DNA from: Escherichia coli
GTDB lineage: Bacteria; Pseudomonadota; Gammaproteobacteria; Enterobacterales; Enterobacteriaceae
Assembly: GCF_003334815.1 (NCBI RefSeq)
Contig: NZ_QOWO01000005.1
Direction: 5' to 3' (one strand)
DNA length: 64,000 nucleotides
Shown here in pieces: positions 1 to 11,202 of this stretch. Position 1 is the stretch's first letter, and the number at the start of each line of letters is the position of its first letter. Both the position numbers and the translations under genes were made by a program. The notes below the pieces were generated by a model that worked only from the letters and a program-made list of their open reading frames with translations, did no database searches and was not told the origin of the DNA.

Positions 1-1810
1 CTGCGGCGTTGTATTCATACCGCGTTTCACGGCCCTGTGCGTCTTTCACCGAGGTTAACCGGCCACGGTTGTCATAGCGGCGGTAAAGGCTGATGCCTTC
101 CTCGCGGTGGACCGCCGTCATCTGGCCGAAGCGGTCGTATTCATAACGGGTCTGGTAGCCCGAGCAGTCGGTGAACGCCAGCAACTGCCCGTAGCGGCTC
201 CAGGTCATCTGCCGGGTGCTGCCCGTCGCATCCGTTGTCGTCGCCGGTAACTCACTGTGCGCGTCATCGTAGCGGTAGCGTACTGTCTCCCCGCTGCGCG
301 ATGTCTCCGATACCAGCCTGCCCGGTTCATCATATTCCCGGCGGCTCTCCAGCCCGTCCGGGGACACCACCGCCGTCAGCTGGTTCCCGTCGTTATAGTA
401 AAATTTCGTCTCCCGCCCGTCCGGTGTGGTGATGTCCGTGATATCGCCGGACACCACATTCAGACCGTACTCTGTCCTCCGTCCCGCCGCGTCCGTCTGC
501 GCCGTGAGCCTTCCTGCCGCGTCATACCCGCTGCGCGTGACGCTGCCGTCCGCCAGTTCTTTTTTCACCACCCGTTTCAGCCCGGCCCCGCCTTCTGTAT
601 GCAGCACCTCACGCCGGTTCAGGCTGTCGGTGACGGTGATGCGGTCCTGCTCATAAAGATAGCGGTAGCTTAACCCTGCCGGGTTCAGTTGCTCCACCAC
701 CCGCCCCGTATCGTCGTAGCGGTAGCGCATCTCCGGCCTTCCCGCGTAACGGTGCGCCACCATCCGGCCCGGGTGCTGCGCGTCATACGTGAAAGCGCGC
801 ACCTGCGTATTGCTGCGGTCATATACCGCCAGCAGTTCACCGGCTTCCGTATACGTGTACCGCACCAGTGGCGCAGCGGGCAGGCTCTCCGGGTATGCCG
901 GGTCGTGCATCAGCCACACCGCCGAAAGGCGGATACCCCTGTCGGGGCCGTATTCGGTACCGGGCAGTGTGTCGGGGAACGCTGAGGCTGAGAGAGGGCG
1001 GGAACTGTCAGAAGAAGATAGCGAAGAGGTGCGGGCCTCTTCCGCACGCTGCGCCTGCGTGGTCAGCACCAGACGGAACTCCCGCCCGGCACCGTCCGTC
1101 ACGCCGGTGATTTCCCCGGCCAGGTCGCCTGCGGCCTCACGCCGGTACGTCAGCGTCCGCCCGAAACGGTCTGCCAGCCCGGTAAGCACCCGGTACGGCG
1201 GCAGCGGCGCTGGCAGTACGTCCTCAGCACCCGGCACCCGCTCTGACCACCCCAGTATCCACCACGGCCCCTGTGCGCTGTTGGTCGCCAGGTAAAGATG
1301 CGGGCTTAACCGGATATCCGGCGGCAGCGCCCCCCACAGCCGCGCCAGCGTATGGCCGTCCGGCTGTGCTGCCTTACCACCGCGCACCAGCCACATTGAC
1401 TCACTGCGGCTGTACACCGCCTCCCCCGGCAGCAGCGGCTCAAAGTGAATGCTCCGCCCGCCGTTGTCGTTGAGTATCAGTCCGTCATCACGTAGCTGTA
1501 AGCGGATATCAGAAGGCGCTTTCCAGCCGGGGCCGAAAACGCCCACCGGTGCAGGCGTCTTCGTCCGGTAGCTGCTGTAGGTGCGGGAGAGAATGAACGG
1601 CAGCGGGCCGGGCAGCGCAAGGTCCGTCTCGCCGGGCAGCACCTTCGCCCCCAGCAGCGGATTTACCGGGTTGCCCGAAGTCATCCCGCCCGGACACACC
1701 GAGCACGCCACGCCGGTGGGCGCGCCAATTCTTACACCTGCCGAACCCTGGACAATGGGACCGCCATACTGAGTCATATCTCCCTGACGCGCCGCTGGTT
1801 TTCCGCTCAT
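1..1810 (-). CDS. rhsD: Rhs element core protein RhsD, N-terminal ~603 codons (partial; CDS runs off window start)
   Basis: Minus-strand translation from ATG (complement of 1808-1810) reads MSGKPAARQGDMTQYGGPIVQGSAGVRIGAPTGVACSVCPGG... with no stop before position 1; absent from ORF track because it is incomplete. Confidence 0.9.
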   Translation of the reverse strand, partial: MSGKPAARQGDMTQYGGPIVQGSAGVRIGAPTGVACSVCPGGMTSGNPVNPLLGAKVLPGETDLALPGPLPFILSRTYSSYRTKTPAPVGVFGPGWKAPSDIRLQLRDDGLILNDNGGRSIHFEPLLPGEAVYSRSESMWLVRGGKAAQPDGHTLARLWGALPPDIRLSPHLYLATNSAQGPWWILGWSERVPGAEDVLPAPLPPYRVLTGLADRFGRTLTYRREAAGDLAGEITGVTDGAGREFRLVLTTQAQRAEEARTSSLSSSDSSRPLSASAFPDTLPGTEYGPDRGIRLSAVWLMHDPAYPESLPAAPLVRYTYTEAGELLAVYDRSNTQVRAFTYDAQHPGRMVAHRYAGRPEMRYRYDDTGRVVEQLNPAGLSYRYLYEQDRITVTDSLNRREVLHTEGGAGLKRVVKKELADGSVTRSGYDAAGRLTAQTDAAGRRTEYGLNVVSGDITDITTPDGRETKFYYNDGNQLTAVVSPDGLESRREYDEPGRLVSETSRSGETVRYRYDDAHSELPATTTDATGSTRQMTWSRYGQLLAFTDCSGYQTRYEYDRFGQMTAVHREEGISLYRRYDNRGRLTSVKDAQGRETRYEYNAA

Positions 1811-2240
1811 ATAAAGTGCCCTTTTAGTTATTGTTCATATCCCTGTGTTAGCAACAAAAAAAAATAAAATGACACACAAGACCAGCTAATGTATTTATAT
1901 ATTTTTCACATAAACTTATTTGTTCTCAATCAACAACAACTGTTATTACAGGTCACTTTCAATATTTTATTAAACTAACATTTTTAGCACAGATGAATTC
2001 ATCATCAACAAATTCACTATATGGATAATATCCATTCAACGCATATGATTTATGATTTTATTAGTCTGAGTTATTTTTGTAGGGCTATATTTAAAATCAA
2101 TAAACTCCACCGATTCAGATTAATATCAGCAATAGAAAGATAGGAAATCACCAATTCAATAACATCATCAATGAAACATATTGTAGAATTAATTTAAACA
2201 AGGCGTTCCATTCAACCAGAACGCCCCTTATTTACTCTCA

Positions 2241-4655
2241 TCACCCCGCAAACTGCCTGAACAGCGCCTTACCCTTAACCAGTCGCGCACCCAGCCAGCC
2301 GCCGAAAAGCGACAGCAGCAGCGCTCCGCTGCACGGCAGAACAATCCACAATCGCCAGTCTGGCTCCCACGGAAAATCAAACACTTTCGCCTGCAACACT
2401 GCCAGCGCCGTTTCCGCACCAATTGCGGCCACCAGGCCGGAAACAAACCCAAGCATGGCGAACTCACACCACAACGTGGTACGCAGCAGTTTTTTCCCCG
2501 CACCGAGTGTGCGCCACACCACCAGCTCCTGATGACGCTGACGCATTCCCACCTGCACCTGTGCCAGCAACAGCAACATACCGCAGGCGGTGACCAGTAC
2601 CACCATCACTTCCAGCGCCCGACTTACCTGCTCCAGCACCTGACCGACCTGTTTTAAAATCGCGCCAATATCTAACAGGCTAATGGTCGGGAACTGGCGG
2701 TTGAGTTGTGTCAACATGCCGTTGCCATTCTCCCAGCGGAAACTGGTAAGCCAGCTCTGCGGTTGCCCGTCTAATGCCCCTTCAGGGAAAATAAAATAGA
2801 AATTAGGCCGCAGACTTTCCCAGTCCACTTTGCGCAGGCTGGTCACTTTAGCGCGGAACTCCTGGGTATCGCCCATAAAAGTCACGGTATCACCGAGGGC
2901 AACGTTTAAGCGTTTCGCCAGCCCCTCTTCCATCGACACTTCATCGGCTTTTGGCGGCCAGTTACCGGCGACAATCGGATTATGATCGGGCCGCGTATTT
3001 TGCCAGGTAAGATTGAGTTCGCGGTTAAGCGCCTCATCTTCATTACCTTCTGTCGGCTTATCGTTAATCGCCGTCAGCCGCGCCCGCACCACCGGATAAA
3101 ACGATTCCGGGACTATCTGATGTTCCGCGAGGAACGCTTTTAGCGGTGCTACCTGTTCTGTGGCGATGTTAATTAAAAAGTAGTTCGGGCTTTCTGGAGG
3201 TAGCTGCTGCTGCCAGCGGTCGAGCAGATCGCCACGCAACACCAGCAGCAGTGCCAGCAGCATAAAGGAGAGCGAAAATGCCGAAAGCTGACTTAACGTT
3301 GACCACGGCTGACGTAACAGGCGGCTAACCGCCAGGCGCAGAGGCAGCGATTTCAGCGTCATGCGGCGAAGTACATTCAGCAGCATCCAGCCCAGCACAC
3401 CGCACAGCAAAGCCAGTACTACCGCGCCCGCCAGCACCGCCCAAAGCAGCATGCTGCCACCCATTAATCCGGCGAGCAGCAGCACAACCACCACACTGAC
3501 AATCGGCAGATAAAACTTCAGCGGCCAGACGTTCGCTACCACATCATTACGTAATACGCGTAAAGGCTGCGTTGCCAGCAACAAGCGATATGGTCGTAGC
3601 CCCACCAGCAGCGAGATGACCGTCATGGTGCCAAGCGCCCACAGCCACGGCCAGAGGCTGGCTGGCGGTAGTGCAGCAGGCAGAACGGGCTTGAGCAGCA
3701 CCATCAACACGTTTTCGAACAACAGGCCTATGGCCCCACCGGTAACGGCTGAAAGCGTCAGCACCATCAACCACTGACCGACGATTAGCTTACGCAGTTG
3801 CGCTCGCCCTGCCCCCAGCGTTTTGAGGATCGCCACCAGATCGTAGCGACTGCGACAGTAATGATTCATCGCTACCGCCACCGCTGCCACTGCCAGCAGC
3901 AAGGTCAGAAGCGCCGAAAGCAGCAGGAACTGTTGCGAGCGTTCCATCGATCGCCCCAGCGCGCCTTCGTCCTGTTCCAGACCGTACCAGCGTTGTTCGG
4001 GTTTAAGCTGAGGTAACAACCATTTCTCATAGCCGTCGAGCTGGTTCTCGTTGCCGCCGAATTTATAACGCCAGGTGACCCGACTCCCCGGCTGCACGGC
4101 TCCGGTTTTATCGACATCCGCCAGATTCATCATCAGACGCGGAGCCATCTGGAAGGGGTTAAAACCGGAATCCGGTTCCTGAATCACTTCTCCGGCAATC
4201 CGCAAGGTGGCATCGCCCACGTCAATGGTGTCGCCCGTTTTCAGGTTAAGCAGTGCCATCAGGCGTGGGGCCAGCAATACGCTGCCCGCCTGCGGTTTCA
4301 GGCCAGGGGGATTAGTTTGCAGATCGCCATACATCGGGTAGATATCATCCACCGCTTTGACGTTCGCCAGCTGCGGTGTGTCGCCTGCAAAGGTCATTGT
4401 GGCGAAAGTCAGCTGCTTGCCGACTTTCAGGCCGCGCTTTTGCGCTTCCTCCAGCCACGCTTGCGGCACTTCGCGTGAACTGCGCAACGCCCGATCGCCC
4501 GCCATAAACTCACGGCTTTGCTGGCTTAAGCCCTTCTCCATGCGATCGCTGATATTGCCCAGCGCCAGCACGCAGGCCACCGCCAGGCTTAGCGCCAGCC
4601 AGACAATTAATAGCGACGGCGAACGCCATTCGCGCCAGAACCAACGTGCAATCAT
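2241..4655 (-). CDS. ybbP: FtsX-family ABC transporter permease (804 aa)
   Basis: ORF track 804 aa, MIARWFWREW...; multiple TM segments; start overlaps ybbA stop in ATGA. Confidence 0.93.
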   Translation of the reverse strand: MIARWFWREWRSPSLLIVWLALSLAVACVLALGNISDRMEKGLSQQSREFMAGDRALRSSREVPQAWLEEAQKRGLKVGKQLTFATMTFAGDTPQLANVKAVDDIYPMYGDLQTNPPGLKPQAGSVLLAPRLMALLNLKTGDTIDVGDATLRIAGEVIQEPDSGFNPFQMAPRLMMNLADVDKTGAVQPGSRVTWRYKFGGNENQLDGYEKWLLPQLKPEQRWYGLEQDEGALGRSMERSQQFLLLSALLTLLLAVAAVAVAMNHYCRSRYDLVAILKTLGAGRAQLRKLIVGQWLMVLTLSAVTGGAIGLLFENVLMVLLKPVLPAALPPASLWPWLWALGTMTVISLLVGLRPYRLLLATQPLRVLRNDVVANVWPLKFYLPIVSVVVVLLLAGLMGGSMLLWAVLAGAVVLALLCGVLGWMLLNVLRRMTLKSLPLRLAVSRLLRQPWSTLSQLSAFSLSFMLLALLLVLRGDLLDRWQQQLPPESPNYFLINIATEQVAPLKAFLAEHQIVPESFYPVVRARLTAINDKPTEGNEDEALNRELNLTWQNTRPDHNPIVAGNWPPKADEVSMEEGLAKRLNVALGDTVTFMGDTQEFRAKVTSLRKVDWESLRPNFYFIFPEGALDGQPQSWLTSFRWENGNGMLTQLNRQFPTISLLDIGAILKQVGQVLEQVSRALEVMVVLVTACGMLLLLAQVQVGMRQRHQELVVWRTLGAGKKLLRTTLWCEFAMLGFVSGLVAAIGAETALAVLQAKVFDFPWEPDWRLWIVLPCSGALLLSLFGGWLGARLVKGKALFRQFAG

Positions 4656-7646: not shown

Positions 7647-7676
7647 TATTCCGTTGATCGGCACATGAACCACAAC

Positions 7677-7702
7677 GCCGGATGCGATGCTGCGCATCCG
7701 GC
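7677..7702. terminator. Hairpin between convergent cnoX and fetB (likely bidirectional terminator)
   Basis: gccggatgcg (7677-7686) pairs with cgcatccggc (7693-7702), 6-nt loop; lies between the two stop codons. Confidence 0.6.
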
Positions 7703-7708
7703 ATCGCA

Positions 7709-9297: not shown

Positions 9298-10215
9298 ATG
9301 CTTATCTTTATCCCGATTCTCATTTTTGTCGCGCTGGTCATTGTCGGCGCGGGTGTCAAAATCGTACCGCAGGGCTATCAGTGGACAGTAGAACGCTTTG
9401 GTCGCTATACCAAAACGTTACAGCCGGGGCTCAGTCTGGTGGTGCCGTTTATGGATCGCATTGGTCGCAAGATCAATATGATGGAGCAAGTGCTCGATAT
9501 CCCTTCCCAGGAAGTTATCTCGAAAGATAACGCCAACGTTACCATCGACGCCGTGTGCTTTATTCAGGTGATTGACGCGCCGCGCGCGGCTTATGAAGTC
9601 AGCAATCTGGAGCTGGCGATCATCAACCTGACCATGACTAACATCCGTACCGTGCTGGGTTCAATGGAACTTGACGAAATGCTCTCTCAGCGCGACAGCA
9701 TCAACTCACGCCTGCTGCGTATTGTCGATGAAGCCACCAACCCGTGGGGGATTAAAGTCACCCGTATTGAAATTCGCGACGTGCGCCCACCGGCAGAGCT
9801 TATCTCTTCAATGAACGCGCAGATGAAAGCGGAACGTACCAAACGCGCTTACATTCTTGAAGCGGAAGGGATCCGTCAGGCGGAAATCCTCAAAGCCGAA
9901 GGTGAAAAACAGTCGCAAATCCTGAAAGCGGAAGGCGAACGTCAGTCGGCGTTTTTACAGGCTGAAGCGCGTGAACGTTCCGCCGAAGCAGAAGCCCGCG
10001 CCACCAAAATGGTGTCTGAAGCTATCGCCTCCGGTGATATTCAGGCGGTGAACTACTTCGTAGCGCAGAAATACACCGAAGCGTTACAGCAGATCGGTTC
10101 CTCCAGTAACAGCAAAGTAGTGATGATGCCATTAGAGGCCAGCAGCCTGATGGGGTCGATTGCCGGGATTGCCGAGCTGGTGAAAGACAGCGCCAACAAA
10201 CGGACTCAGCCATGA
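9298..10215 (+). CDS. qmcA: SPFH/stomatin-prohibitin family membrane protein (305 aa)
   Basis: ORF track 305 aa; N-terminal TM, coiled-coil KAEGE repeats. Confidence 0.92.
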
Positions 10216-10670
10216 TGGAGTTAATGGTCGTTCATCCACATATTTTCTGGCTCAGTCTCGGCGGTTTGCTGCTGGCAGCCGAGATGCTGGGCGGAAATGG
10301 TTATTTGTTGTGGAGCGGCGTGGCAGCGGTGATTACCGGCCTGGTGGTCTGGCTGGTGCCGCTGGGTTGGGAGTGGCAAGGGGTAATGTTTGCCATCCTG
10401 ACGCTGCTCGCCGCCTGGCTGTGGTGGAAATGGTTGTCGCGGCGGGTGCGCGAACAAAAGCACAGCGATAGTCATTTAAACCAGCGCGGGCAGCAGCTGA
10501 TTGGCCGACGTTTTGTGCTGGAATCTCCGCTGGTCAACGGGCGCGGTCATATGCGCGTCGGTGACAGTTCATGGCCTGTCAGCGCCAGCGAGGATCTCGG
10601 TGCAGGTACGCATGTTGAAGTCATTGCGATAGAAGGGATAACCCTACATATCCGAGCCGTCTCGTCTTAA
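10212..10670 (+). CDS. ybbJ: NfeD-like inner membrane protein (152 aa)
   Basis: ORF track 152 aa; ATGA overlap with qmcA stop. Confidence 0.9.
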
Positions 10671-11078
10671 TCACCCTGCCCGATGATGACAGCAGCCGGA
10701 GAGATTTTCGATAATCGGGCAGTCGGCGCTGTCATCGCCAGGGCAGGCATTCGCCAGTGCCAGCAGCTGGTCGCGCATGGATTGCAGCTCCTCAATGTGT
10801 CGTTCGATCTCCGCCACCTTCTCCAGCGTGCGCCGTTTGACGTCGGCGCTGTGCCGCTGCGGGTCGTTAAACAGATTCACCAGCTCGCCGCTCTCTTCCA
10901 GGTTAAAGCCCACCTGCCGTGCCTGGCGCAGTAAGGTCAGTTCGTTGAGATGCTGCTGCGTGTAGGTGCGATAACCGTTTTCGCTGCGCATCGGCGGCGT
11001 CACCAGCCCCTTCTCTTCATAGAAGCGAATGGCTTTGCTGGTCAGGCCGGTAATTTTTGCTACATCGCTGATGTTCAT
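10671..11078 (-). CDS. cueR: MerR-family Cu(I)-responsive transcriptional regulator (135 aa)
   Basis: ORF track 135 aa [25 protein letters not shown]...; C-terminal CPGDDSADC metal site. Confidence 0.95.
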
Positions 11079-11202
11079 CGTTCGCGCAACGCCTCCTGTG
11101 CTTTGTTAAAGGGTTTCAACAGATATTCAAGCACGTTTTTTTGCCAGTGCGAATATCGACCGCCACCACAATAATACAGGAAGTACTGCGCACAGAGAGA
11201 TG

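Follow-up and report, generated by a model that had tools for sequence, protein, structure and literature searches.

In the stretch of Escherichia coli DNA that we analyzed (64,000 nucleotides, called the window below), the convergent genes ybbJ and cueR end on stop codons that abut without a single base between them. Taken together with published transcript maps, our analysis supports an antisense overlap between the 3' ends of the two messages, which is already found in genome-wide tables. We consider it likely that ybbJ and cueR form an ordinary tail-to-tail pair devoid of an intergenic terminator, in which a spacer of zero goes with read-through ended by Rho or by collision and reflects neutral compaction. 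As a discovery this carries little weight, since the gene ends, the transcript overlap and the Rho-dependent read-through had all been published. The comparative picture presented below, that is, a tight junction that is also an insertion site, is the only addition to prior knowledge, and a modest one. The pair does provide a clean example of convergent E. coli genes that lack an intergenic terminator and would rely on Rho inside the opposing gene.

Reading frames and stop codons

The preliminary description of this DNA had claimed that the convergent stops abut, and this was confirmed by the sequence, the list of open reading frames, the PGAP annotation, the record of strain MG1655 and the models of the protein families. 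Positions 10660-10680 of the window read tctcgtctTAA followed at once by TCAccctgcc, which corresponds over 10652-10679 to the codons gcc gtc tcg tct TAA and, beyond the junction, to TCA ccc tgc. The gene ybbJ (10212..10670, + strand) encodes an NfeD-family inner-membrane protein of 152 aa and stops with the TAA at 10668-10670, as given by the reading-frame list, PGAP, the MG1655 annotation and Pfam. The gene cueR (10671..11078, - strand) encodes a Cu(I)-responsive MerR-type regulator of 135 aa, and its TGA stop appears as tca at 10671-10673 (reading-frame list, NCBIfam, annotation). Read directly, the two abutting stops span 10668..10673. Upstream, qmcA (9298..10215, + strand; reading-frame list and annotation) heads the qmcA-ybbJ unit, whose transcription runs towards cueR, and 4 nt (10212-10215) are shared by the ybbJ start and the qmcA stop. 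The order of the locus in E. coli is fetA, then qmcA-ybbJ, converging with cueR-ybaT-glsA.

Judged by homology, the frames of ybbJ and cueR are not in doubt. CueR aligned with the NCBIfam equivalog NF007590 from residue 1 to 135 on positions 1-135 of the 135 of the model, with 308.6 bits for a cut-off of 244, and with TIGR02044 at 207.5 bits (cut-off 147.4); it is thus a full-length equivalog match above the cut-off. No NCBIfam model matched YbbJ, for which Pfam was used instead: the NfeD domain PF01957 was found at residues 94-148 (E 5e-12) and ends four codons before the stop. This C-terminal NfeD domain, together with the SPFH/stomatin-type gene qmcA immediately upstream with its 4-nt overlap, places YbbJ in the NfeD family.

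Several complete genomes proved 100% identical to a 1-kb query from the locus. In a strain that is 100% identical here (L001), the PGAP ends match those of the window (ybbJ 1563..2021, cueR 2022..2429), and the MG1655 record gives the same ends as well, with cueR at 513993..514400 (+) and ybbJ at 514401..514859 (-). Homology and two independent annotations leave no place for a different assignment of either stop codon.

The abutment is, as a single case, statistically unremarkable. Nine convergent CDS pairs lie in the 50 kb of MG1655 around the site, with spacers of 315, 211, 132, 62, 41, 36, 30 and 0 nt and one 4-nt overlap (hemH/aes), and 75 convergent overlapping pairs have been counted in E. 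coli (Huvet & Stumpf 2014, PMC4161906). Altogether, the zero spacer is a real but ordinary observation that was already known, the gene ends being present in the reference annotation.

Transcript ends around the junction

For translation to end, an mRNA must run beyond its own stop codon. With a spacer of zero, it follows that each of the two mRNAs carries the complement of the last codons of the other gene. The earlier argument that there is no room for a terminator, and that the transcripts must overlap as antisense 3' ends, found support in the lack of any terminator-like site at the junction, in a published listing of the pair as an excludon (PMC12288877) and in a Rho termination region located 588 nt past the cueR stop (PMC7815308).

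ExcludonFinder (NAR 2025) counts cueR-ybbJ among the 165 pairs of MG1655 with convergent overlapping transcripts (PMC12288877, Table 1). Of 58 MG1655 RNA-seq samples, at least half showed this convergent excludon (PMC12288877), by a criterion that is easily satisfied when the spacer is zero. As for Rho, Adams et al. (eLife 2021) reported a bicyclomycin-sensitive termination region that peaks at MG1655 514988 (+), antisense to qmcA (PMC7815308, Supplementary file 2), with a Rho score of 15.4 and a p value of 2.7e-12. The reads upstream and downstream of it numbered 61 and 5 without bicyclomycin, and 68 and 86 with the drug (PMC7815308). Once converted via the MG1655 annotation, the peak falls at the above distance from the cueR stop, that is, at ~10083 of the window (- strand), antisense to the 3' end of qmcA; the region is placed to within hundreds of bases, as it was scored in 800-nt windows (PMC7815308). 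The DirectRNA-seq counts of 61-68 reads in 800 nt suggest that ybbJ and cueR are weakly expressed (PMC7815308).

The mapping of both transcripts by Term-seq, proposed earlier as a check, is partly answered by the same study: its curated list of Term-seq 3' ends holds no discrete end between MG1655 513,900 and 515,099, nor any entry naming ybaT, glsA or fetA (PMC7815308). The SMRT-Cappable-seq supplements (PMC6131387) have no entry for cueR, ybbJ or qmcA.

We also looked for the features expected of Rho-dependent termination past cueR. Ahead of the termination zone, the read-through RNA of cueR is indeed untranslated, C-rich and G-poor over 10270..10520 (- strand), a stretch antisense to ybbJ that lies 150-400 nt past the cueR stop. 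Its C/G ratio is 1.6-2.4 in 100-nt windows, and the GC skew on the + strand is +0.32 to +0.40. From this composition, we propose it as a candidate loading (rut) site for Rho. In principle, the reads upstream of the Rho region could come from an antisense start inside ybbJ instead of cueR read-through.

The search for intrinsic terminators, defined as a GC-rich hairpin followed by a U-tract past the stop, turned up no such site on either strand over the ~200 nt next to the junction. On the + strand, the nearest candidate, at 11035..11061, combines a weak hairpin with a following TTTTTGC; it lies in the 5' end of cueR, ~385 nt past the ybbJ stop. It was seen in a terminator scan, in a fold (-16.4 kcal/mol for 51 nt, z -1.9) and in a second scan, and would be the sole intrinsic-terminator-like candidate for the qmcA-ybbJ transcript. 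On the - strand, one scan returned marginal terminator-like sites at about 10459, 9993 and 9530, and a consensus scan returned none before 9553.

On this basis, we propose that RNA polymerase coming from each gene would pass its own stop and enter the opposing gene. As indicated by the published data (PMC7815308), the cueR transcript runs antisense through all of ybbJ and is stopped by Rho ~0.6 kb downstream, at the 3' end of qmcA; Rho would load on the C-rich untranslated stretch at 10270-10520. The qmcA-ybbJ transcript would in turn enter cueR antisense; Rho could end it, as could the weak hairpin with its U-run at 11035-11061 or a collision with polymerases coming the other way. The outcome would be a 3'-3' antisense overlap between messages of low abundance, and the zero spacer would have arisen as DNA without a function was lost over a long time between two genes of weak expression.

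One could also imagine that an intrinsic terminator is hidden in the coding sequence itself. Within its last ~75 nt, cueR harbours an imperfect inverted repeat (10675..10748; repeat search and folds), in which 10676-10687 pairs with 10711-10722 and 10685-10693 with 10728-10736, codons of the metal-binding loop pairing with codons of the CCHH tail. If this hairpin were a bidirectional terminator or a stabiliser of 3' ends, the overlap would be limited to ~80 nt, and the repeat pair of 9-12 nt does give a stable predicted stem on both strands, ending at the cueR stop. However, neither strand has a U-tract after the hairpin, the folds were no different from those of shuffled controls (z -1.6 and -1.9), and RNAalifold over 30 genera gave for the cueR 3' end a weak consensus of -7 kcal/mol with 0 compensatory pairs. 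Moreover, the hairpin precedes the cueR stop and so cannot end a translatable cueR message, and the curated Term-seq data have no 3' end there (PMC7815308). We thus regard a hidden terminator as hardly credible, and a conserved one in the cueR 3' end was ruled out by folding and by the 30-genus RNAalifold consensus.

No Rfam family matched between 10000 and 11300, even at E<=1. A sigma-70-like match (ATGACA, 18-nt spacer, GATAAT, 10/12) occurs at 10686-10715 on the + strand, inside the cueR 3' end and directed antisense into that gene. It is no more than a match to the consensus, and in total such matches in the region were no more numerous than in shuffled controls.

The junction in other Enterobacteriaceae and within E. 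coli

A scan for YbbJ in one genome per species gave 80 Enterobacteriaceae loci, in each of which both stop codons were located; setting aside 2 loci without cueR within 4 kb and 2 that were rearranged or doubtful left 76. In 48 of these 76 other Enterobacteriaceae loci with both genes convergent, ybbJ and cueR are 0-5 nt apart or overlap. The most frequent arrangement is a 4-nt overlap through interlocked stops TTAA, TTAG, CTAA or CTAG (YTAR), found in 34 loci from Enterobacter, Lelliottia, Klebsiella and others. The stops abut at 0 nt in 6 loci (Trabulsiella, Pluralibacter) and lie 3-5 nt apart in 7 (Kluyvera, C. sedlakii), and single overlaps of 9 nt and 47 nt are seen in Salmonella enterica arizonae and E. 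mori, respectively. An insert of ~2.8-3.8 kb is present in 24 loci (Citrobacter, Kosakonia, Phytobacter, Intestinirhabdus). The one insert locus that we examined, that of Citrobacter sp. FP75 (L012 4479-7309), carries a PA5441-family protein of 714 aa (NF053584) and a 238-aa ORF, the last of the insert, whose stop overlaps that of cueR by 4 nt.

As a control, we used the convergent pair cnoX/fetB from the same loci, which keeps a spacer of median 70 nt (range 14-233, n=53). In the window, this spacer (7647-7708) holds a GC-rich palindrome (GCCGGATGCG...CGCATCCGGC) typical of a shared terminator or a REP-like hairpin. At ybbJ/cueR, the C-terminal tails of both proteins vary freely and the junction stays tight. 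On the evidence of these sequences, the tight junction is a long-standing property of the locus and not the accident of one strain, and its persistence across genera is more than chance.

Within E. coli, 3204 of 5426 complete genomes, among them K-12, matched without a break a 100-bp query spanning the junction, and ~2160 other complete genomes matched its cueR half only. The junction is a recurrent insertion site: ~40% of complete E. coli genomes have extra DNA there, amounting to 0.8-2.6 kb of genes in the alleles that we examined (L002, L003, L086, L087). The inserts include a REP/BIME element fused to the last two ybbJ codons, a YadA-type trimeric autotransporter, a lipoprotein and hypothetical genes. 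To illustrate this, strain H105 has 829 bp between the two stops, made of a REP element and a frameshifted gene. At the right end of the island of O145 RM9467, which is the part that we examined, this gene exists in an intact form encoding a hypothetical protein of 407 aa, and its TAA touches the cueR stop in the same way as that of ybbJ in the window. UTI89 and PapM-32-1 carry a 2.56-kb island with a YadA-type adhesin, which leaves 3 nt before the cueR stop. In SCPM-O-B-8794, 112 bp are found and a deletion has produced a chimeric CueR tail: the cueR end is fused to island-derived sequence (L006 4572-5015), and the predicted CueR of 147 aa is altered after the CCHH motif.

The other side of cueR is also affected. 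PGAP reports in the window (11075-11172, - strand) a 98-bp remnant of a frameshifted gene that overlaps the cueR start. At its position, O145 RM9467 and PapM-32-1 have an intact gene for a HlyD-family type I secretion adaptor, which shares 4 nt with the cueR start; in O145 RM9467, a type I secretion permease/ATPase comes next. Given the junction inserts on one side and the secretion gene, remnant or intact, on the other, cueR has variable DNA on both sides.

In the island alleles, ybbJ ends with RAVIA and a TGA, the REP/BIME element supplying the last two codons and the stop. The K-12-type tail, RAVSS before the stop, resembles the RAVSST of Salmonella and the KAVSQ of Citrobacter. In the window, the last ~27 nt of ybbJ (10643-10670) show 6-8 differences from each of the other Escherichia alleles and are about as close to Salmonella and Citrobacter as to other Escherichia, the sequence just upstream being nearly identical. 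This pattern suggests that a recombination or indel event has left a sharp breakpoint near 10643.

Such a breakpoint could be understood if the K-12-type zero spacer were recent and had arisen by the loss of an island between ybbJ and cueR. In line with this, the 6-8 differences from every other Escherichia allele fall in the last 27 nt before the two final codons of the K-12-type ybbJ, and E. albertii, E. whittamii and two further Escherichia species have insertions or no cueR within 4 kb. In addition, a different + strand gene ends in the O145 and H105 alleles at an identical junction, cTTAA directly followed by TCA. However, the K-12-type tail matches those of Salmonella and Citrobacter, with which it shares synonymous codons (acc cta, gcc gt), the IA tail and TGA stop of the island alleles come from the REP/BIME element, and the tight junction is the state of most outgroup genera. 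By hand alignment, the K-12 sequence is not reproduced by a clean microhomology deletion. We considered one between the REP segment cgtcttatca and ccttaatca on the cueR side and think it less likely, the K-12 tail matching that of Salmonella. For these reasons, the K-12 type would be ancestral or re-imported and not a simple scar, and we hold the deletion of an island to be unlikely. In our reading, the tight allele is close to the ancestral state and the islands were inserted. Since all sampled non-coli Escherichia carry insertions, the tight allele may also be part of an old polymorphism or have been re-acquired.

On the other hand, a junction kept tight across the family could mean selection for coupling and not neutral compaction. 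The overlap would then make a functional excludon, in which qmcA-ybbJ transcription lowers cueR, or the reverse, via polymerase collision or cleavage of the RNA duplex by RNase III. We find this quite improbable, as we do its corollary, that copper sensing is tied to the QmcA/YbbJ membrane-protein system. The idea can draw on the conservation of the tight junction in many genera while both protein tails vary in sequence and length, on the spacer retained by the neighbouring pair cnoX/fetB and on the presence of cueR-ybbJ in the MG1655 excludome (PMC12288877). The qmcA-ybbJ orthologues srgKJ are moreover SdiA-inducible in Salmonella and Enterobacter (PMC11619404), so that the opposing transcription is regulated. 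However, the pairing is not needed, since the two are separated by inserted genes in ~40% of E. coli genomes and in ~25 further species. Both genes also appear weakly expressed, as seen above (PMC7815308), and SdiA was without effect on cueR or copA reporters (PMC11619404). The wider proposal that a spacer of zero or less has been kept across Enterobacteriaceae as a regulatory link is highly improbable in our opinion; induced qmcA-ybbJ transcription would there damp cueR and copper-efflux control, or the reverse, and junction insertions would rewire the link in some lineages.

Because ~40% of complete genomes have extra DNA between the two genes, the ybbJ/cueR overlap is dispensable in E. coli. 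This fits the neutral reading, and the description given here holds only for the K-12-type allele of the window. With a tight junction in most Enterobacteriaceae, a spacer in the neighbouring pair and E. coli alleles with and without an insert, the locus offers a natural test bed for the regulatory cost or use of such overlaps.

Comparison with known convergent pairs

A parallel can be drawn with the convergent excludons described in MG1655 (PMC12288877), which are, like ybbJ and cueR, convergent neighbours with overlapping transcripts and short spacers (95 nt on average for the class). The two genes have the geometry of an excludon, being adjacent, on opposite strands and tail to tail, and their spacer of 0 nt stands at the extreme of the class. 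The concept of the excludon nevertheless implies mutually exclusive expression, and it is operationally that ybbJ/cueR is classed as an excludon. That the two genes are so often separated in nature speaks against a functional, mutual-exclusion excludon.

The locus also resembles the class of Rho-dependent termination of untranslated read-through or antisense RNA (PMC7815308). As in this class, the cueR side shows a Rho region antisense to qmcA, a C-rich and G-poor tract upstream and no hairpin with a U-tract, the termination zone being coarse and the rut site here a candidate only. By analogy, ybbJ/cueR would work like many E. coli convergent pairs that have no terminator in between and for which Rho acts inside the opposing gene. 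Bidirectional intrinsic terminators, exemplified by the cnoX/fetB palindrome at 7647-7708, serve genes of the same convergent geometry and give them one shared 3' boundary. Unlike such pairs, ybbJ/cueR has no intergenic DNA, and a hairpin flanked by A- and U-tracts was searched for there and not found.

A second tight pair lies further along the window, where aes (25098..26057, + strand) and hemH (26054..27016, - strand) overlap by 4 nt at 26054-26057 through interlocked stops TTAG. This pair is present in the published list of excludons as well (PMC12288877). Like those of ybbJ and cueR, its CDS end tail to tail without a spacer, and the same 4-nt YTAR overlap is what most other Enterobacteriaceae show at ybbJ/cueR. 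The two pairs differ in that the stops of aes and hemH share bases, whereas those of ybbJ and cueR in the window abut (TAA, then TCA).

Elsewhere in the window, Rfam recovered RNAs expected from K-12, namely REP-derived naRNA4 copies, sroB/ChiX, the dnaX frameshift element and the 4.5S (SRP) RNA, at 16308-16486, 17784-17867, 23547-23624, 31651-31715 and 48519-48615.
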